The notes beneath the pieces were generated by a model, which was given only the letters and a program-made list of their open reading frames with translations, had not been told where the DNA came from and made no database searches. This document shows positions 2,532 through 60,395 of a DNA stretch of 64,000 nt, one piece after another. Position 1 is the first letter of the stretch, and each line of letters opens with the position of its first letter. Source of the DNA: Octopus vulgaris (lineage: Eukaryota). Both the position numbers and the translations under genes were made by a program. The stretch lies in contig OX597834.1 in the NCBI GenBank assembly GCA_951406725.2, positions 28,086,001-28,150,000 of the forward strand, in the 5' to 3' direction.

Positions 2532-3195
2532 TGTCGAGCGTTTACTGTTTACATCTCGCTCAGAGATTTATTAAAACTTTAACTAGTTTTCCTCAAAACA
2601 CTGTCAATCGAGAAACTGGTCCTATAAGTCTAAATGACTCGGAAGTCCATTCGTTGCAAGCATTTAGGGCTGGTATTCGGTTCGTGGAGGCCTGGCTTGC
2701 TTCTTTCTACCCATCATGAAGGTTATGTAAAAGTTATGGGTACTGCCCTTCCTTCCTAACAAAGATAAACAAAGAGTGAAACACACACATCGCCCGGTCT
2801 GAGATTCGAACCCGCGGTCCCTCGACCGCGAGTTCGCTGCTCTGACCACTAGGCCATGTGCCTCCACCTAGGTGAATATATACCCCACCGAAATCGAGAA
2901 ACTGGCACTATGAGTCTATATGACATGGGAGTCCATTCGTTGCAAGCATTTAGGGCTGGTATTCGGTTCGAGGAGGCCTCCCTTGCTTCTTTCTACCCAT
3001 CATGAAGGTTATGTAAACGTTATGGGTACTGCCCTTCCTTCCTAACAAAGATAAACAAAGAGTGAAACACACACATCGCCCGGTTTGAGATTCGAACCCG
3101 CGGTCACGCGACCGCGAGTTCGCTGCTCTGACCACTAGGCCATGTGCCTCTACATGCCACAACTATACGCTATATGAAATGCCAAAGTGACTTAC

Positions 3196-11017: not shown

Positions 11018-11021
11018 AACA

Positions 11022-11460
11022 ATTTGCCATTTGAATATGGCTAACCCCTAAGGGTGGATGCTACTGTAGTTTGTAGCCCCAGGATGTTATCTCCTCCAGC
11101 TGGCTATAGACACACTATCTGTGTCCTCTCTCAGTATTTGTGAAGGGGAGTCATCCTCCCCGTCTTCAACTCATGATACACACGGACCCGAGTTTCAAGG
11201 TGTTTACCTTTCATCAGCGTGTGACAATCATGGTTGTCGACGAGAAGTCAGCTCCCTTCACAAATACATATACTTTTTCCAGTGTCGATTGACACTGATA
11301 TTGAAAAAGTGAAATCAAACAATGATAAATCTCAGAGCGAGTTATAAACAGTAGCGGTAACACATCGTGACGCATATTTGCCATTTGAATATGGCTAACC
11401 CCTAAGGGTGGATGCTACTGTAGTTTGTAGCCCCAGGAAGATATCTCCTCCAGCTAGCTA
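11022..11460 (-). mobile_element. Hammerhead-bearing retrozyme/Penelope-pLTR-like element, ~1.25 copies of a 354-bp monomer
   Basis: atttgccatttgaatatggc recurs at 11022 and 11376; contains a hammerhead; next to (TA)n. Confidence 0.75.
11179..11223 (-). ncRNA. Type I hammerhead ribozyme, canonical core
   Basis: CACACG CUGAUGA AAGGU AAAC ACCUU GAAAC UCGG GUC^ CGUGUG: perfect stems I and II, short quasi-palindromic stem III. Confidence 0.9.
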
Positions 11461-11727
11461 TTTTTAAAAATGAATAAATGAAAGAATGGAGTCGAACGAA
11501 GATTTTAACAAAATTCCTTTACTTTCAACACATGTTTCGAAGACTGCATATTCTTAATTCCGAAGGAATAAAGGGTGCATTATGCCGTCTTCTCATCATT
11601 TATTCATGCACCCTTTATTCCTTTGGAATTAAGAATATGCAGTCTTCGAAACATGTGTTGAAAGTAAAGGAATTTTGTTAAAATCTTCGTTCGACTCCAT
11701 TCTTTCATTTATTCATTTTTAAAAATA
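11459..11727. mobile_element. Fold-back pLTR-like element (122-bp arms, 25-nt spacer) with a truncated hammerhead-like motif on the minus strand
   Basis: Arms 11459-11580 and 11606-11727 differ at one position; minus strand reads UGAUGA GAAGAC...GUCUUC GAAAC AUGU. Confidence 0.65.
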
Positions 11728-14362: not shown

Positions 14363-14404
14363 CATCGATAGATAGATATGTACATTCATGACTATATATA
14401 TATA

Positions 14405-14863
14405 GTGACGCATATTTGCCATTTGAATATGGCTAACCCCTAAGGGTGGATGCTACTGTAGTTTGTAGCCCCAGGAAGATATCTCCTCCAGCTGGCTATA
14501 GACACACTATCTGTGTCCTCTCAGTATTTGTGAAGGGGAGTCATCCTCCCCGTCTTCAACTCATGATACACACGGACCCGAGTTTCAAGGTGTTTACCTT
14601 TCATCAGCGTGTGCCAATCATGGTTGTCGACGAGAAGTCAGCTCCCTTCACAAATACATATACTTTTTCCAGTGTCGATTGACACTGATATTGAAAAAGT
14701 GAAATCAAACAATGATAAATCTCAGAGCGAGTTATAAACAGTAGCGGTAACACATCGTGACGCATATCTGCCATTTGAATATGGCTAACCCCTAAGGGTG
14801 GATGCTACTGTAGTTTGTAGCCCCAGGAAGATATCTCCTCCAGCTGGCTATAGACACACTATC

Positions 14864-14864
<1 letters not shown>
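14405..14864 (-). mobile_element. Same family, ~1.3 copies of a 352-bp monomer embedded in (TA)n
   Basis: gtgacgcata recurs at 14405 and 14757; nearly identical to 11022-11460. Confidence 0.78.
14569..14613 (-). ncRNA. Type I hammerhead ribozyme, canonical core (identical to 11179-11223)
   Basis: Same 45-nt motif in a second copy of the ~352-bp repeat. Confidence 0.9.
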
Positions 14865-16255: not shown

Positions 16256-17219
16256 TGATAATAGTGGTGGTGGTGGTGGTGGTGGTAGGAGATATTAGTT
16301 ATAGTGGTTGTGAGAGGGGCTATTCATTAATGCTGGTGATGAGGGTTAGTGAGAGGTAATATTAGTAGTGACAGTGGGGGGGCGCGGTACCTGATATTAG
16401 TTAATGGAGAGGTGGGTGATGGTAGTTGTGATGGTTGTGGTAGGAGGATAGGAGTTAATCTTCGTGATGGTAATACTAGTGGTAGGAGGTACTATAAGTA
16501 ATGGTGGTGGTGGTGGTGGTGGTGGTGGTGGCGGCGGACGTGATTCTGGCATTGAAAGTGGGTGTGCTTAAACGTTGGGGGGGGGGGTTGTGTTGATGAT
16601 GATTATGATGGTGGTAGTGATGATGATGATGTTGATGGTGGTGGGCGTTGACGATGATGATGAGGAGGAGGTCTTCTCAATTAGAAACTGTAATGAAAGT
16701 GTGGGGTACAGAAGGACGAGGAATGAGTGATAGGTGCGAAGAGTGGCGGAGGGAGCAAGTAGTGGGGGAAGAAAGATCGGTGTGGTGAGGTGATGTGAAA
16801 TGTTGGGGGTACGGTTCATTAATAAGGCTACACAACACAAAACCTATTTTTCTCCCCAATTATGAAAATTTTATCGAGGCTTTTGGCACCTCTCACTCGC
16901 AATATCTTGATAATCTTTTTTTTCTTTTTTTACTTTTTCATCTTTTGTTTCTTTCTTTCTTTCACTGGGCTGCGGCCATGCTGGGATACCCGCCTTAATG
17001 GGTTTTTAGCCGAACAAATCGATATCCAGTCCTTAATTTTAATTTGTATATATATATATATATATATATATAGCAACAATAAATTTCTGAGCGAGACATA
17101 AACAGCAGCAGCACGACATCGTGAAGAACACCTGCCACCCAAATGTGGCCGACCCCTAAGGGCCGATGCTACTGTAGCTTGCAGCCCCAGGAAGACATCT
17201 CCTCCAGCTGGCTTTGACA

Positions 17220-17318
<99 letters not shown>

Positions 17319-21180: not shown

Positions 21181-21452
21181 TATGAGTGAGGTTCTAGTGA
21201 CAATAACTCTGAGCACCTGCGGCGAGCTGGCAGAAACGTTAGCACACCGGGCGAAATGCATAGCAGTATTCCATCTGCCGTTACGTTCTGAGTTCAAATT
21301 CCGCTGAGGTCGACTTTGCCTTTCATCCTTTCGGGGTCGATAAATTAAGTACCAGTTACGCACTGGGGTCGATATAATCGACTTAATACCTATGACTGTC
21401 ATTGTTTGTCCCCTCTATGTTTAGCCCCTTGTGGGTAATAAAGAAATAGGTA

Positions 21453-22673
21453 CTACGGACCTATTCTAGCTCGCGTGACGCCATCGCCCTCTTCGACAAG
21501 GGTATTATTAACAAAGAGCTGGCAAAATGTTTGCCAGCTAAAAATTATTATGTGACCAGGGGTGTCAAATACGCCACGGTGTGGCTACTTTTCGACACTC
21601 CTGAGGAGGTTTGCACTGTGGAAGGCCAGGCCTGGAAGGGGAGGAGATTTTGTTTCTTCCCACATATCGTGGAAAGAAGGTGATAAGGGCCCGGGTATGT
21701 GGTCTTCCCCCGGGCACCGGAGCGGGGCGAATTGCAGATGCCATCCGGCGAGGCCTGGGGGATAGCGGGCCCAGGCTTTTAAATACAGAGATAAAGCCTG
21801 CGGTCGACTGGGAGGGTGCAAAGGCAACTTTGACCCTATGGAGCCCAGTGCCCGCGGGGGAAATGACTTTCTCCGACTTTTTAAAAATGGATGGCTCAAG
21901 GTATCCAGTGATACTTGAGGGTCGCCCCCCCCCACCACCAATGTGTCACTCGTGCCTGGAGTCAGGCCACATTAAGAAGGACTGCCCTGGGGGCCGTGGT
22001 AAGGTCCCGGAACAGGGAAAGATGAAGGTGTCCTCCGCTCTCCCATTGCAGGGAGAAACGGCGGAAGTCGTTGAGGTATCGGCCCCAAAAAGAAGAAAAA
22101 GAAAGGTGAGCAACAATGGTTGCTCACCAACAGACGCGCAGGTTGCGGGAGACGAAGAGGACCCGCCCCCGGGTGTGCCGGTGAAGGCTCCGACTCCCGC
22201 ACCCGTAAGAAGGAAAAAGAGAAACGGGAGACGGTCGGCGGATAACGCTGTGCCGTCGACTAAATCCGATGCTCCTCCGGTGGAAGGTGTGCCACCAGGA
22301 GCGGGAGGCTCTGTCAGTGGGAATTGTGCCACTGACAGAGCGTGCTGAGGCCCCTCCCTGTGAGGAGGACGTGAAACCCGTCGTTTTCTATCTCAGGGAA
22401 GGGTCTCGAGAAATGCTTGGACGGTCTTCCAGGCCGAGAACGATTGGATTCGGTTTGTATACACTGTCCAGACTGGCCTCCGCAGGTGGCTGCGGACGTC
22501 GTGAGTCAGAAGGAGCTGTTCGAGGTCATGGTGACCTTGTAATAAGGAAGATTTTGCTTTCCTCTTTCCGGGCCCCGACCTGCCGATGCAGGCTTTCCTG
22601 CAGGCGGCGTGGCATTTGCTTGGGGGCTCCGATGAAGAGGATTGATCTTAAAGATTGTCTGTGTTTTGAATAA
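21453..22673 (+). pseudogene. Decayed ORF1 (gag-like) of a Tx1/L1-type LINE
   Basis: GC-rich 245-aa ORF with zinc knuckle CHSCLESGHIKKDC followed by a basic, Pro-rich tail; frameshifts upstream. Confidence 0.7.
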
Positions 22674-23193
22674 TATATATATGGGGTTTATTAACAGCTT
22701 TTATTGAAGAACTCAAAAGAGTTGTCTCCCCTTATTCACAACACAGGAACTGAAGAACCACAATTACTACTACTTCCTGTTTTGCCAACATCCTCAATTA
22801 AACCAAACAACACATGCTCTTAATCCCATTGGATCCTAATACCTCAAGGTAATTTTTTCGTGAACAATCATTAAACTCAAGATACACAACGAACTCACAA
22901 TGTATCGGAGTACTTATTTTTTAATTTTTGTACATATTTATTATTATTCTTTTGCAAAAATCAATGCAATTTTCTTTTTTTCCCCTTTCTAATTTTTAAA
23001 AAACTTTTTCACCTAAATATTCTTGACAAGTCATACAATGACGAAAACCGGTTTGAATAAATATATATTTATATATTTTATCAATTTCTCATTTCATTAA
23101 AATTTTCTTTCATTTGAGCATTCTGCATTTTTACAATTTTTCCTTGCTTATCATTTCTCCACGTGCGGTCAACACAACCCCACCATTTATTGA

Positions 23194-43942: not shown

Positions 43943-44214
43943 AGATAATGGTGTCATGGAGACCCAAAAGTGTCAGGTAATGCTGAATAAGTGCTATAGA
44001 CAGACCATAGTTAAGTTCCAGATTCAGTAATATTGCGAATAAAGGGTTCAACGTTGGTATATAAGAATATATATATAAGAATTTTCTGCGTAATAAGATA
44101 CAAAACCAATGCTGTATAGATATTAGAGCATTTACACCTCACTCTTTCCTCCACCTTATTCTCTATTTTGTATCACATCTAAACTAACTATGACTTAACT
44201 TTTCCTCTCACACC

Positions 44215-44269
44215 GTCTCCGATGAAGGGATATTATTATTAATTAATATTCTAGAAACAGCTGTAAGAC
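44215..44269 (+). ncRNA. Minimal type I hammerhead, U4C core
   Basis: GUCU CCGAUGA A GGGAUAUUA..UAAUAUUCU A GAAAC AGCU GUA^ AGAC; stem III ACAGCUGU is palindromic; lies inside an inverted repeat (44068-44134 / 44277-44345). Confidence 0.7.
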
Positions 44270-44332
44270 CTATCTATAAATGCTCTAATATCTATACAGC
44301 CTTGGTTTTTTTATCTTATTATGCAAAAAATT

Positions 44333-44375
<43 letters not shown>

Positions 44376-45846: not shown

Positions 45847-46425
45847 ACACCCGTGTACATATTTACAAAGTCAGAAAACAGCATAGCTCCCATGACTTTA
45901 GGAAACATTTTTTTCAGGCTGAGAGTTGAAGCATGGAACAAACTGTCGGCATTAGTTGTTAGTTGTTGGAGCACTGCATCCTTCAAAACTTCCATGCTTC
46001 CTGAGATTCGCCAACACTACACCTGATTGACTTTCAGAAACATTTTTTTCACACTAAGGGTTGCTGAAGTATGGAACAAACTGCCAGAATCAGTTGTTAG
46101 TTGTCGGAGCACTGCATCATTCAAAACTTCCATGCTTCCTGAGATTCGCCAACACTACACCTGATTGACTTTCAGAAACATTTTTTCACGCTGAGGGTTG
46201 CTGAAGTATGGAACAAACTGCCGGAATCAGTTGTTAGTTGTCGGAGCACTGCATCATTCAAAACTTCCATGCTTCCTGAGATTCGCCAACACTATACCTG
46301 ATTTCCTCCCCTCCATACACACACTGTTCGCTTTCCAGACATTTGTACATTACTGCATAAACTTTATACGCACTTTCTGACAAGTTGTGGTGCACCTGAG
46401 CACTGTATACAATAATTTCATTATC
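45847..46425 (+). mobile_element. CR1-like LINE 3' end with a triplicated ~138-bp unit
   Basis: RKHFFTLRVAEVWNKLPESVV-type CR1 C-terminal motif repeated three times. Confidence 0.65.
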
Positions 46426-47369: not shown

Positions 47370-49576
47370 AGAAAGTGAGAGTTGTATTTTAATGTAGAGG
47401 TGTACATGTGCAATCAATGGATTATGTATACATCTACATAAAGGTAACCTAGTCTTGTTTTTTAGGAACGTATCTGGGACTACATTGTCTAATGTGTTAT
47501 TCCAGTTTTTACACAGTACAGTATGTGTATAAAATCAGAGAATTAGGCTGTTATTTCTAGCAGATAAAGATACCACATAGGGGTTCACGTGTATGCACAA
47601 ATTGTAGGAATTAGACTATTATTTCCAGCAAGGCTGAGGTACCGAATGAGAGTTACCTCACTGGCTTGTGAAGGTAGTAGTGTGTGAAGTCACAGATGCT
47701 GGACGAGTTAATAAAGTGTTAAAGAGTTGTTTCCCTTGCTTCAAATTTTTTGTTTTTTTTTTAGATTTCGAACAACTTGGTCTTTGGAGAAAGCTTTTTG
47801 TCTACTAATAACATAAATAATCTCATCATATGAGACAGGCAGAAACGTTACAGTGTTGGGTAAAAAGCTTCTACAGTATTTATTCAAGCACTCAGCGCTA
47901 CGAGTTCAAATCCTACCAAAGTCAAATTTTATTTTTTGTCCTTTCAGGAACAATAAAATATAGTACCAGCCAAAAACTAGACTCAATAGAATCAATTAAA
48001 CCCTTGCTGGAACATTCTTGGCCATATACCAACCAATACTAGAAACAAACCATGTGGTTTCAGGTTCAGTCCTGCTCAACATCACATCACCTTGGGCATG
48101 TATCTTCTACTGTAGATCCAGGCTAACAGATGCCGTGTGAGTGAAGGTTGTAGATGGAAACTGTGTGGAAGCCCATCACGTGTGTGTGGGGGGGTGAGTA
48201 TACACCTGTATTTGTGTTTGAATTTGTCCCCCATCATCACCACCACCTGACAACTAGTGTTGCTTTGTTTATGTCCTTATAACTTAACAATTCAGCGAAA
48301 GAGACCAATAAAATAAGTACAAGAGCTGACTGGTTCAAACTAAGCCCTCCAGTGCTCCAGTACGGCTTCAGTGCAATGACTGAAACAAATAAAAGATAAA
48401 TATAAAGCCTTGCTAAACTTGTTATCAACAGCCAAGTCCTAGGTCTACAGTTAAAATCCTGCAACCAGCACCTCTCAGTGTCCTTGAGCTAAATAGACTT
48501 ACCGCTCCCTCACTTTGCTACCATCATCATCATCGTTTAACGTCCATTCTCCATGCTAGCATGTGTTGGACAGTTCAACTGCGGTCTGGGAAGCCAGAAG
48601 GCTGCACCAGGCTCCAGTCTGATCTGGCAGTTTTTCTACGGCTGGATGCCCTTCCTAACGCCAACCACTCCATGAGTGTAGTGGGTGCTTTTTACGTGCC
48701 AGACGAGGCTGGCAAACGGCCACGATCAGATGGTGCTTTTTACGTGCCACCGGCATGGAGGCCAGACGAGGCTGGCAATGGCCATGATCGGATGGTGCTT
48801 TTTACGTGTCACTGGCACGGAGGCCATTCAGAGCGGCGCTGGCAACGGCCACGTTCGGATGGTTCTCTTACGTGCCACCGGCACTGGTATCACAGCTACA
48901 ATTTCCATTGATGTTGATCGATTTCGATTTTCGCCTTTCATTAACCCATAGGCATAGGGAGTGGCTGTGTGGTAAGTAGCTTGCTTACCAACCACATGCT
49001 TCCAGGTTCAGTCCTACTGTGTGGCACCATGGGCAATTGTCTTCTACTATAGCCTCAGGTCAACCAAAGCCTTGTGAGTGGATTTAGTAGACAGAAACTG
49101 AAAGAAGCCTGTCGTATATATATATATATATATGTATGTATATGTGTGTGTGTGTGTATGTTTCTGTGTCTGTGTTTGTCCCATCAACATCGCTTGACAA
49201 CCGTTGCTGGTGTGTTTACATCCCTGTAACTTAGCGGTTCAGCTAAAAGAGACCGATAGAATAAATACTAGGCTTACAAAGAATAAATCCTGGGGTCGAT
49301 TTGCTCGACTAAAGGCGGTGCTCCAGCATGGCCACAGCCAAATGACTGAAACAATTAAAAGAGTAACCCTTTTAGTGGCACTTTATGATATGCAGTGATG
49401 CAGTCTGGCCCATTCTAAAACCTGTGCTCGGGTTTGTAAGGGAAATAACTATATAAGCATTTTTAGAGATGTAAAGTATAATAGCCATCTCAATATGGCT
49501 AACCACAAAAATGCTTATATAGTTATTTCCCTTACAAACCCGAGCAACGCCGGGCGATACTGTAAGTCTCTATATA

Positions 49577-50218: not shown

Positions 50219-50910
50219 CTGAAAGAGAATAAACAGTCTGTTATTCTTGGCCAATTCCTGAATTTGGAATTTCATAAATGATAAAACAGTCACACATTCT
50301 TTGCTTGACCAGCAGAGATATCTGTCAGCTGGACAAAGCAGGCTTTGATATTTTGGTTTCTGTTGCTGTTTGTGAACACAGGAGCTACTTTGTGCAGAGA
50401 GGCACAAAGAGACTTGTTCTTCAATTAAGCCTATCCATCGTTAGACACTACAAGCAGTGTTGTTCTTAATCAAAGACGCTACTGAGCGGATGGCTCCGGG
50501 AGAGAGTGCAGGGGTGCAATGGTATGGGAGAAGGTGAGCAACCATACAAAGCAACCACTGAATCACAACATCAAATGATTATTTACAGCAGTGCCAAACT
50601 AACCATCCAGCCACTGTGCTTATTCACACCTCTCAGCTTTCAGGATTGAGAGTTTGGTTAGTTAATGCTACTGGAACTTACTAGTAATGCCACACGTTCC
50701 GTGTGTTTTTTCTCTCGGTGAAACAAGTTATAACAGAAGGAGGCAAGTGTGTGTTCCAATTTCATGATTAAACTTTCATATTTAGCACTCGTCAATAAAA
50801 TAATTACTGGTTGAATGTAATTGACTTACCAACTCCCTCAAAATTGCTGGTCCCATGCAAAAATTTGAAACCAATATTTAGCACTCATCATCATCATCGT
50901 TTAGCATCCA

Positions 50911-51095
50911 CTTTCCATGCTAGCATGGGTTGGACAGTTCAACTGGGGTCTGGGAAGCCAGAAGGCTGCACCAGGCCCAGTCTGGCATTAGGAAGGGCAT
51001 CCAGCAGAAACATTGCCAGATCAGACTGGGCCTGGTGCAGCCTTCTGGCTTCCCAGACCCCAGTTGAACTGTCCAACCCATGCTAGCATGGAAAG
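50911..51095. repeat. Fold-back of a (GAT)n-tailed retroposon 3' end; perfect 74-bp arms
   Basis: 50911-50984 is the exact reverse complement of 51022-51095; the ORF track gives matching peptides on both strands. Confidence 0.9.
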
Positions 51096-51284
51096 CGGAC
51101 GCTAAACAAAGATGATGATGATGATGATGATGATGGCCATGGTCCACTGACTGAACCAAATAAAAGATGAAAGACTCCATCATTGAATAAGGATGGATTC
51201 CTTTGGGTAACGTAACTTTAGAGATGTACACAAGACCATGATGCTCATGGTAGGAACATCTTTGATTGCAGGCCTGAAAAAGCT

Positions 51285-51507: not shown

Positions 51508-52035
51508 GAGGAGCATTTGGTTGTAAAACACTCTCTTGAAAAAGCTGTCCAACTCATTCCAGCATGGAAAAACAGATGTAAGAATGATGACAAATGATGG
51601 CAGGAGAAAGGCAAATTCTTTAGGATAGAATTGAGATCCTCTGATAACTCATGGATGGTTATATCAAAATTTCATGTAAATTTACGTTCCAAACACCAGC
51701 TTAAACCTTTCGTTCCTAACACTAGCTTAATGATAACTAAGTTGTTTTACTATATTCTTTGTTGTATTTGAAGTAATCGAAAGAAACACAGAGCATCTCA
51801 AAATATATACAGCAATATACTAGCACGACACTAGCACGACAAGAGAAGTCAGTTTGTAGCTGTAATAAACCCAATTCTTAGATATGACTGTTCAACAAGG
51901 AGTGTTCAACAAGATGTTTGACTGTGTGCAAGACATCAAGGACAGCAATGCCATCGATAGTAAGAGTACAGGGGTGCCCAATCTGGGTAGATAAGCTGAA
52001 AGAGTCAGCAATCAATGTTTAATATATATATAATA

Positions 52036-52637
52036 TAATGAAATTATTGTATACAGTGCTCAGGTGCACCACAACTTGTCAGAAAGTGCGTATAACGTGT
52101 ATGCAGTAATGTACAAATGTCTGGAAAGCGAACAATGTATGAGTCAGATACATGCTTGTGTGTGTATGGAGGGGAGAAAATCAGGTGTAGTGTTGGCGAA
52201 TCTCAGAAAGCATGGAAGTTTTGAAGGATGCAGTGCTCCGACAACCAACAACTGATGCCGGCAGTTTGTTCCATGCTTCAGCAACTCTCAGTGTGAAAAA
52301 ATGTTTCTGAAAGTCAATCAGGTGTAGTGTTGACAAATCTCAGGAAGCATGGAAGTTTTGAAGGATGCAGTGATCCGACAACCAACAACTGATGCCGGCA
52401 GTTTGTTCCATGCTTCAGCAACCCTCAGCGTGAAAAAATGTTTCTGAAAGTCAATCAGGTGTAGTGTTGGCGAATCTCAGGAAGCATGGAAGTTTTGAAG
52501 GATGCAGTGCTCCGACAACTAACAACCGATGCCGGCAGTTTGTTCCATGCTTCAGCAACCCTTAGCGGGAAAAAATGTTTCCTTAAAGTCATGGGAGCTG
52601 TGCTGTTTTCTGACTTTGTAAATATGTCCACGGGTGT
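52036..52637 (-). mobile_element. Second copy of the triplicated CR1-like element, inverted relative to 45847-46425
   Basis: Reverse complement with the same three-unit structure. Confidence 0.7.
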
Positions 52638-57572: not shown

Positions 57573-57633
<61 letters not shown>

Positions 57634-57858
57634 ATAGAAATATTAAAATAACTAGTCTCTCTAAAAGGAACAGCGGCAGCGTTCCGGAAAATAATAGTTA
57701 TCGCCATATAATATGGCATTCTTATAAAAATAAGAAAAAAGCTGTCCGCTTATTAGCTCCATGAAGCCATCGCCTTAAGTTAGCTATTTGATACACAAAC
57801 TGTATCCATATAACCTTCGAACAAGGGAGGTCAGTCGCTCCACACTACTTGACCGGCA

Positions 57859-57900
57859 GCTACAGACGCGTTTCGGGGTATTGCCCCTTTTCAATGCAGC
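57859..57900 (-). ncRNA. Minimal type I hammerhead, U3-A8 variant
   Basis: GCUGCA UUGAAAA GGGG CAAUA CCCC GAAAC GC GUC^ UGUAGC; stem III ACGCGU is palindromic. Confidence 0.78.
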
Positions 57901-58019
57901 GTAGCCAGCCAGTAGGTGTCGCTTCCGACAATCTCTGTTCGATGGTTTTATTTACCGAAACTAGGTAAATAAAACCATCGAACAGAGATTGTCGGAAGCG
58001 ACACCTACTGGCTGGCTAC

Positions 58020-58060
58020 GCTGCATTGAAAAGGGGCAATACCCGAAACGCGTCTGTAGC
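58020..58060 (+). ncRNA. Minimal type I hammerhead, U3-A8 variant (one C missing in stem II)
   Basis: GCUGCA UUGAAAA GGGG CAAUA CCC GAAAC GC GUC^ UGUAGC; predicted cut after 58054. Confidence 0.72.
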
Positions 58061-58379
58061 TGCCGGTCAAGTAGTGTGGAGCGACTGACCTCCCTTGTTC
58101 GAAGGTTATATGGATACAGTTTGTGTATCAAATAGCTAACTTAAGGCGATGGCCTCATGGAGCTAATAAGCGGACAGCTTTTTTCTTATTTTTATAAGAA
58201 TGCCATATTAGTATGGCGATAACTATTATTTTCCGGAACGCTGCCGCTGTTCTCTTTTAGAGAGACTTAGTTATTTTAATATTTCTATTATTGAAAACAA
58301 GTGGATGTATTCCACCGAAACTAGGTAAATAAAACCATCGAACAGAGATTGTCGGAAGCGACACCTACTGGCTGGCTAC

Positions 58380-58421
58380 GCTGTATTGAAAAGGGGCAAT
58401 ACCCCGAAACGCGTCTGTAGC
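58380..58421 (+). ncRNA. Minimal type I hammerhead, U3-A8 variant
   Basis: GCUGUA UUGAAAA GGGG CAAUA CCCC GAAAC GC GUC^ UGUAGC; predicted cut after 58415. Confidence 0.75.
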
Positions 58422-60395
58422 TGCCGGTCAAGTAGTGTGGAGCGACTGACCTCCCTTGTTCGAAGGTTATATGGATACAGTTTGTGTATCAAATAGCTAA
58501 CTTAAGGCGATGGCCTCATGGAGCTAATAAACGGACAGCTTTTTTCTTATTTTTATAAGAATGCCATATTAGTATGGCGATAACTATTATATATATATAT
58601 ATATACACATACACACACACACATTGTTTTAATTGGCAGAAGTTGCTAAGTGACTTAAGGGCCAAGAGTTTTGAGCAGTATATGTTTATATATATATATA
58701 TAAATAATGGCACTCTGTCGGTTATGACGACAAGGTTCCAGTTGATTTAATTAACAGAACAGCCTGCTTTTGAAATTAACATGCATGTGGCTGAGTACTC
58801 CACAGATATGTGTACCCTCAACGAAGTTCTCAAGGAGATCCAGTGTGACACAGAGTGTGACAAGGCTGGCCCCTTTGAATTACAGGTACAACTCATTTTT
58901 GCCAGCTGAGTGGACTGGAGTAACAAGCAATAAAGGGTCTTGCTCAAGGGCACAGTGTGTCGCCAGGAATTGAACTCAGGACCTTATGATCGTGAGCTGA
59001 ATACCCTAACCACTATACCACACACCTTCACATATATACATATGTATAACTATTTCTTTATTACCCACAAGGGGCTGAAAATAGAGGAGACAAACATGGA
59101 CAGACATAGGTATTAAGTCGATTATATCGACCCCAGTGCTTAACTGGTTCTTAATTTATCGACCCCGAAAGGATGAAAGGCAAAGTCGACCTCGGCGGAA
59201 TTTGAACTCACAACGTAACGGCAGACGAAATACCGCTAAGCATTTCGCCCGACGTGCTAACGATTCTGCTAGCTCGCCGAACAGCAAAAATTAACCTACA
59301 ACAATACATAACATTTTATCAAAGAGAAAATGGGAATGAAAAGATTGTGAAAAAAATCAGGGTGGATCTGTGCAATACATAAGGAAATCAGGGTGGATCA
59401 GTGCATGACTTGATAATAAACCGGGTAGAAAGAAAGGGGTGGAAAAATTAATAAAGAATCAATAACGAAACAATCGAAAATAATTAATGAATGAAAAGCA
59501 ATCAGTAAATAGGGTTGGTTATTAAAACGTGTGTGCGGAGAGTGTTGGTGAGGGTTTTAAAAAAAACACATACATAACAAAAAATAAAACAAAAAGTGGC
59601 AACAGCAGCAGCAACAGTGGCAGCAAGGTTAAAGGTTACAAACAACATCAGTTAAAATAAAAAGGGTTAAAAAAACAAAAAAATTTAGATAACAAAAATG
59701 CGTAAAAGCTGCGGGATAACAGACATTAAAAAAAATAGGAAAAACAAAAAAATTTAAAAAGTTAATTAAATAAGAATAAGTTATAACTTGTTTAAGAAAG
59801 CCGAGAAATTTCATTTTCTGTCCAAATTTCGCATTTCAAAAAACAAAATACAATTTTTAGATTTGGACCCTTTTTTTGAAATAAGTGGTGTTAAAATGAA
59901 AAGAAGTTTACTACTACAACTACCAATGCTACTAGTGTTACTAATAACTACTGATATTAATATTATTATGACAAAGACTACGACAATAGTGAATACGGAT
60001 ACCAAAATGCAAAAAATATAGAAATATTTTCAAAAATATTGTCATCATCTTCATTTTGCATTCGCTTTCCAAACAACCATGGGTTGAACTGGTTGCTGCA
60101 GTCTGAACCAGTTCTTAAGTTTTTGAGTCAGTAACTGTCTTCGTAGACAAGTCAGAGGGCAATGCTGTGCTAACCCATCTTAGACAGTAGTAATTCCATA
60201 ATAAAGAACTGATCCAGACCAACCAAGATCCCTTATCTGATCCCATACAATCACAGAAGGCAGTCAAAAAATGATGACAATGGTGATGAAATTTCAAAGA
60301 AAAAATATTGTACGAAAATAAAATGGTTTTGTAACTAAATGTATTTTTTGCATACGTCTCATAATTTCTAAGTGTTTCACACTTGGAACAATTCT

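Follow-up and report, generated by a model that had tools for sequence, protein, structure and literature searches.

The 960-base element at 57631-58590 of the window (the whole 64-kb stretch of DNA analysed here) is most probably a many-copy, non-autonomous insertion of the metazoan non-LTR retrozyme type that is moved in trans by a Penelope-like element (PLE). It is not an autonomous PLE. By the sequence-level definition it is a metazoan non-LTR retrozyme that works like a non-autonomous PLE, and it represents no new class. The mobiliser of animal retrozymes was left open in 2020, with LINEs or PLEs as candidates (PMC7229834), and Li, Clavereau and Pollet have since argued that retrozymes are non-autonomous PLE derivatives (2026, bioRxiv 10.64898/2026.07.22.740005). 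As presented in that preprint, the argument rests on co-occurrence and pLTR similarity, and the mechanism is called unresolved. The present locus adds another kind of evidence on which autonomous element moves animal retrozymes, namely an insertion footprint, from which precise start positions for the RT and a domain that binds it can be predicted. It also shows that an abundant ribozyme family can escape Rfam and CUGAnGA descriptors.

The window is AT-rich animal DNA that is dense in repeats and microsatellites and has many short interspersed repeats; its SINEs presumably resemble octopus SINEs. The element is non-coding and is set between (TA)n tracts. Its parts are listed below, with direct copy d1 (57954-58313) serving as the unit reference.

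57575..57630, no strand: left target flank, (TA)n microsatellite
57631..57956, minus strand: inverted arm, a 5'-truncated copy (unit positions 11-338) whose outer end is the long 3' terminus
57631..57690, minus strand: tail, an extension at the arm end that is missing at the right end and equals 58230-58291
57859..57900, minus strand: hammerhead 3 (predicted fold), U3 at 57894, C17 at 57865
57954..57966, plus strand: apex, a native 3-bp ACC/GGT stem with a 7-nt loop at 57957-57963
57954..58313, plus strand: direct copy d1, one full unit, 360 nt, 41% G+C
58020..58060, plus strand: hammerhead 1, type I (predicted fold), U3 at 58026, cut after 58054
58055..58415, plus strand: predicted unit-length RNA, 361 nt, strongly self-paired
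58108..58217, plus strand: structured non-ribozyme domain common to three families, ending in the hairpin 58202-58217
58230..58291, plus strand: stretch between the short (58229-equivalent) and long (58291) termini, 62 nt
58314..58590, plus strand: direct copy d2, 277 nt (unit 1-277), ending at the short 3' terminus
58380..58421, plus strand: hammerhead 2 (predicted fold), U3 at 58386, cut after 58415
58591..58623, no strand: right target flank, (TA)n then (CA)n microsatellite

The preliminary description had reported a ~326-bp inverted arm with a 7-nt loop followed by ~1.8 direct copies, and this architecture is confirmed. The arm is 326 nt long and 98.5% identical to unit 11-338, with 81 perfect pairs counted from the apex, and the direct copies total 1.77 units of 360/361 nt, with 98.9% identity between d2 and the d1 unit. 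Among the three copies, three substitutions and four single-base deletions account for all seven differences, and the arm and d1 differ at five places. The three bases that close the loop are native to the unit, as seen at the d1/d2 joint. A deletion in d1 at 58041 is a minority form in the sequencing runs discussed below, where most of the depth has an extra C, so the family unit is 361 nt. The longest stop-free stretch is 59 codons in the element and 55 codons on the circularised monomer. The absence of an ORF, which had been set against the Penelope-like structure, is therefore real, but it is no surprise because metazoan non-LTR retrozymes are by definition without one (PMC7229834). Among 50 scanned window ORFs (66 listed), none matches PLE RT or GIY-YIG families as an autonomous partner.

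Element anatomy also constrains the template. Because the cDNA runs for 637 nt across two cut sites that are both intact, it was copied from a circle or an uncut multimer and not from a cut linear monomer. Two fold-backs are present in the window, with loops of 7 nt (this element) and 11 nt (a relative described below), which favours cDNA snap-back over two independent truncations; the 3-bp apex stem is weak (-0.2 kcal/mol).

Three hammerheads had been proposed, and all copies fold as type I with C17 at 58054 (+), 58415 (+) and 57865 (-); the predicted folds support plus-strand cut sites after 58054 and 58415. The folding register consists of a 6-bp stem I, UUGAAAA (U3-A8), a 4-bp stem II, GAA, the palindrome ACGCGU and a GUC triplet. 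U4, G5, A6, A9, G12, A13, A14, the A15.1-U16.1 pair, H17 and a Watson-Crick 3-8 pair (U-A) are present in 3/3 copies. The core is UUGAAAA and not the canonical CUGAnGA, a point missed in the first reading. An alternative register with C3-U4-G5 and insertions was rejected, being 4-8 kcal/mol worse with a pair probability of at most 0.03. Hammerhead 1 combines the U3-A8 core and palindromic stem III with an unpaired U1.7 at 58061 and a 6-bp stem I that extends to about 58006-58072; its stem II has 3 bp compared to 4 bp in the other copies. Stem I pair probability is 0.94-1.0 in d1 and the arm and 0.43-0.91 in d2, and a private C>T in hammerhead 2 weakens its stem I.

The stem III palindrome ACGCGU is poor in a monomer, and two copies are predicted to form a 6-bp duplex (-7.5 kcal/mol), in agreement with the suggestion that it suits dimer activation. 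A dimer arrangement with shared stem III is known for animal hammerheads (PMC4209133). All 6/6 aligned ribozymes have an invariant, unpaired U1.7, and the last base of loop 2 is A; the loop 1-loop 2 tertiary contact described in PMC11875169 pairs an unpaired U1.7 with the last A of loop 2. The U3-A8 pair is a rare natural covariant described as active in vitro (Perreault et al. 2011, PMC3088659), with about 1,300 hits in Schistosoma PLE ribozymes (Cervera and de la Pena 2014, PMC4209133). A dimer of the 361-nt family would cleave in vitro with fairly good probability. In other systems, 1/9 Xenopus retrozyme dimers cleaved in vitro (bioRxiv 10.64898/2026.07.22.740005), and the Anolis PLE ribozyme required protein for cleavage (PMC11167929).

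A loose hammerhead descriptor detected seven motifs in the 64-kb window compared to a mean of 0.06 (maximum 1) in 100 shuffles; a strict descriptor, which was set after the hits had been seen, gave 6 versus 0 in shuffles. Rfam returned no match at the gathering threshold over the whole window, and the 18 matches to E 10 were hairpin look-alikes that included no hammerhead model; the C3-G8 family described below was missed too. In a metagenome scan with a 19-nt motif, all 7/7 loci proved to be chance hits that matched over 19-23 nt and had no other part of the ribozyme, and scans of viral and prokaryote genomes with a 22-nt motif gave 0 and 0 matches.

The element, here termed family A, has homologues within the same window (families B and C). 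Family B comprises two ORF-less insertions at about 11020-11461 and 14402-14864 (-) with ~1.3 units each and a 352-nt period; it has a canonical C3-G8 hammerhead, adjoining TA tracts and a monomer fold z of -9.0. An older family B remnant without a ribozyme at ~17060-17225 (-) lies between microsatellites and ends at the long terminus. The two insertions and this 17-kb remnant have 5' ends within about 15 nt of each other, all of them where the conserved domain begins. The identical C3-G8 ribozymes at 11217 and 14607 were considered as flanks of a full PLE and rejected as such: they belong to two separate ORF-less insertions with no PLE ORF between them. Family C (2105-2620) is a fold-back with arms ~95% alike and an 11-nt loop. 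Its hammerhead at 2323 has a U3-A8 core and a GUA triplet, and the family is ~76% like family B. Behind the cut site, 101/161 aligned positions of family B and 105/166 of family C are identical to family A (z 7.0 and 8.3, respectively, versus 500 shuffles).

Over six ribozymes from three lineages, ribozyme pairing holds in 110/110 cells compared to 30-47% in slid controls. Covariation affects 13/20 ribozyme pairs, which are changed on both sides and include the 3-8 pair (U3-A8 versus C3-G8); this count has a base of three lineages only, and the structure was drawn from those same sequences. Palindromic stem III and the unpaired U1.7 are kept in all families. Outside the ribozyme, 10/21 predicted pairs of the shared domain are changed on both sides (5 sequences), and the terminal-hairpin motif has 10 matches in the window versus 0.01 expected. 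The 58108-58217 domain is a candidate RT-binding and boundary element.

Behind the conserved hairpin, six 3' ends are found in the window at distances of 4, 12, 13, 15, 61 and 70 nt. This count excludes the direct arm of family C, which is interrupted by another repeat, and fragment 49470-49507, which lies inside a different palindrome. In family A, each of the two termini comes after a CTATTAT heptamer, of which the unit has no others, and they lie 175 and 237 nt behind the cut site. One end in six (family C inverted arm) has no TA tract beyond it. Related copies are dispersed and mostly TA-flanked. No target-site duplication is readable at 57631-58590, where both flanks are (TA)n microsatellites.

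The unit was found in 20/24 listed sequencing runs (10 studies, 8 organism labels) at 75-81% of unit words, and one of these 20 runs may be the source of the window. Contigs of 4/20 runs (4 studies) were aligned to a single unit only, at a likeness setting of 85; in three DNA-like or unlabelled runs, 2143, 1615 and 997 contigs aligned. The 361-nt unit family is many-copy. No RNA run is among the listed holders of the unit; run X13 is RNA by guess only and is not counted as evidence of transcription. The head-to-tail joint 58313>57954 occurs in 4/4 runs, with short sides of 26, 37, 25 and 41 letters, that is, at least 30 letters in only 2/4 runs. Loose ends at 58291 that continue into TA repeats occur in 16 and 12 contigs (two runs). 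The short terminus is not among the loose ends listed, beyond which there are 238 more, so that recurrence is seen for the long end only, and no strand-change joint (the apex junction) is listed among contigs of the 4 runs. None of the 10 listed substitutions (at least 5%) falls within 57995-58078, and none touches the ribozyme core or stems I-III. In one run, five contigs have loose ends at 58011 that lead into a diverged ribozyme region with a different core, which hints at a further subfamily.

The 361-nt monomer that had been predicted holds in one respect, because 58055-58415 spans 361 nt, but its release from this copy is doubtful because an arm-containing transcript loses stem I of ribozyme 1. 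The monomer is strongly self-paired compared to shuffles (z -7.5 and -7.7; opposite strand -5.2). Folding of a transcript that includes the arm is predicted to form 324-325 arm:d1 pairs. In plus-strand read-through RNA, stem I of ribozyme 1 has a probability of 0.0, and in minus-strand read-through RNA stem I of ribozyme 3 is abolished and paired into the long hairpin. Both plus-strand ribozymes fold in RNA that starts at 57960, and stem I of ribozyme 1 has a probability of ~0.4 in RNA that starts at 57900. The predicted 324-bp hairpin blocks ribozyme 1, so monomer release from this locus would need an internal start. Because read-through RNA would form a ~325-bp hairpin, the copy at 57631-58590 is probably self-silencing, and it is rather unlikely that the locus yields 361-nt RNA in cells.

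Metazoan non-LTR retrozymes are described as ORF-less head-to-tail units of 150-450 nt that have no LTR, PBS or PPT, with 350-390 nt in mussel (Cervera and de la Pena 2020, PMC7229834). Family A resembles them in having an ORF-less head-to-tail unit of matching size, one type I hammerhead per unit, G+C contents below 50% (41%), a self-paired monomer and many copies. It differs in its U3-A8 core, which occurs across the family, and in its insertion features, where an inverted 5' copy, a tail and a preference for TA tracts take the place of a target-site duplication that can be read; when present, the target-site duplication of retrozymes is longer than 4 bp. The term 'inverted' is absent from PMC7229834. 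Circles and cleavage have been demonstrated for the retrozymes of that study and are predicted for family A.

Known traits of PLEs include inverted 5'-truncated copies, one-sided tails of 30-40 nt and a bias towards microsatellites (Craig et al. 2021, PMC8557442; the same traits also in PMC8969392). The Penelope insertion signature that had been noted is supported: the inverted 5'-truncated copy and the partial tandem are present, together with microsatellite bias and a one-sided extension of 62 nt (PMC8557442). For a PLE of Anolis, reverse transcription was found to begin past the hammerhead at either of two internal sites that lie close together, and what separates these two starts becomes the tail; the enzyme cuts at ATT, and insertion can proceed without ribozyme cleavage (Frangieh et al. 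2024, PMC11167929). Like endonuclease-positive PLEs, family A has a partial tandem with an adjacent inverted 5'-truncated copy, a one-sided extension, microsatellite bias and a hammerhead upstream of both a structured region and two internal 3' ends. Unlike them, it has no RT/GIY-YIG ORF, a 62-nt tail compared to 30-40 nt, and a ribozyme of canonical rather than minimal build. It shares a compensated 3-8 pair with other U3-A8 hammerhead variants (PMC3088659, PMC4209133), although the Schistosoma U3-A8 form is a minimal PLE ribozyme that is mostly single, whereas family A has a canonical build in a tandem unit and occurs beside a homologous C3-G8 family. Non-autonomous Chlamys PLEs (e.g., MRC1) are likewise non-coding, pLTR-forming, head-to-tail and PLE-driven, but as described they are green algal and most are without canonical hammerheads (PMC8557442). 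Our literature search, which had subscription journals, Repbase and supplements outside its scope, found no U3-A8 core in a canonical tandem ribozyme, no PLE footprint on a retrozyme and no shared domain of this kind.

Truncated PLE copies leave an identical footprint (PMC8557442, PMC8969392), and close opposite-strand ribozyme pairs in Schistosoma have been ascribed to truncated PLEs (PMC4209133). The element could thus be debris of an autonomous PLE in which several 5'-truncated pseudo-LTR fragments were co-inserted with no independent monomer or circle cycle. We consider this quite unlikely: the unit end joins its own start in 4/4 runs, the listed loose ends appear to lead into diverged subfamilies or TA repeats with no obvious unrelated internal region, and the entire 361-nt unit is self-paired as one piece. 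The 6-bp/4-bp canonical ribozyme build is also that of tandem repeats and not of the minimal PLE type (PMC4209133).

It is very improbable that the tandem and palindrome arose at the DNA level, by satellite expansion, fold-back repair or as a MITE-like element, with the ribozyme as a passenger. DNA snap-back can produce a near-perfect palindrome, and unequal crossover has been discussed for local tandem growth of retrozymes (bioRxiv 10.64898/2026.07.22.740005), but the arm stops exactly at the recurrent 3' terminus of the family, the ends of three families cluster behind one RNA hairpin, and relatives are dispersed and mostly TA-flanked. An inverted arm created by assembly or library preparation from a fold-back read would fit the lack of a strand-change joint among those listed, and the single-base deletions that make up 4/7 inter-copy differences are like long-read consensus error. 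Such an artefact nevertheless has only a very low probability because the arm is no mirror of the sequence past the apex: its outer limit is unit 338, a point at which independent contigs end as well, it departs from d1 at the places noted above, and it borders a flank of its own; family C, too, has the same build.

Under the preferred reading of a retrozyme moved in trans by a PLE, transcription of a tandem master copy would yield paired hammerheads that exchange stem III strands and cleave behind their GUC triplets; the 361-nt RNA set free in this way may then be closed into a circle by ligation. A PLE RT/GIY-YIG protein would bind the structured domain behind the ribozyme and nick a (TA)n tract, with reverse transcription starting at either of two sites just 3' of the conserved hairpin. 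The cDNA end would then fold back on the 3-bp stem and be extended, and resolution of the product at the second start site would give an inverted arm with a 62-nt tail. We tentatively propose, at slightly less than even probability, that a conserved structured domain of ~110-170 nt in these retrozyme families recruits the PLE RT and fixes starts 4-15 and 60-75 nt behind the terminal hairpin, with the arm formed by cDNA snap-back and resolved at the second site. If so, the locus would preserve a direct footprint, at nucleotide resolution, of a circular RNA being copied by PLE enzymes. It would also give the mobiliser of retrozymes, as yet without a name, a defined cis-element, carried by families that standard ribozyme searches overlook because of their U3-A8 core.

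Several other features occur in the window. A G+C-rich broken ORF at 21450-22650 (+) has a CCHC zinc knuckle, no Pfam match at E 0.01 and no ORF2 behind it; it presumably resembles a LINE ORF1. It was rejected as a PLE because it is a zinc-knuckle, ORF1-like remnant. An isolated hammerhead-like motif at 23017-23060 (+) has a U3-A8 core, palindromic stem III and a UUU triplet; it lies ~130 nt ahead of a TA tract and could be either chance or a fourth family. In family B at 14515-14650 (-), CUGA faces GAUGA in an internal loop of the long stem beneath the ribozyme, an arrangement that we take to resemble a kink-turn and that is not clearly kept in family A. A head-to-tail repeat of ~287 nt occurs at 572-1134 and 2606-3153 with about two units each; it has a tRNA-like SINE head on the minus strand and no hammerhead by descriptor, and the 2606-3153 copy abuts family C. 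Copies of an array with a 138-nt period lie in opposite orientation at 45847-46424 and 52035-52637. Palindromic elements occur at 11459-11727, 50885-51121, 49425-49546 and 44058-44354, and within the one near 49.5 kb, 37 nt correspond to part of the hairpin that families A-C share.
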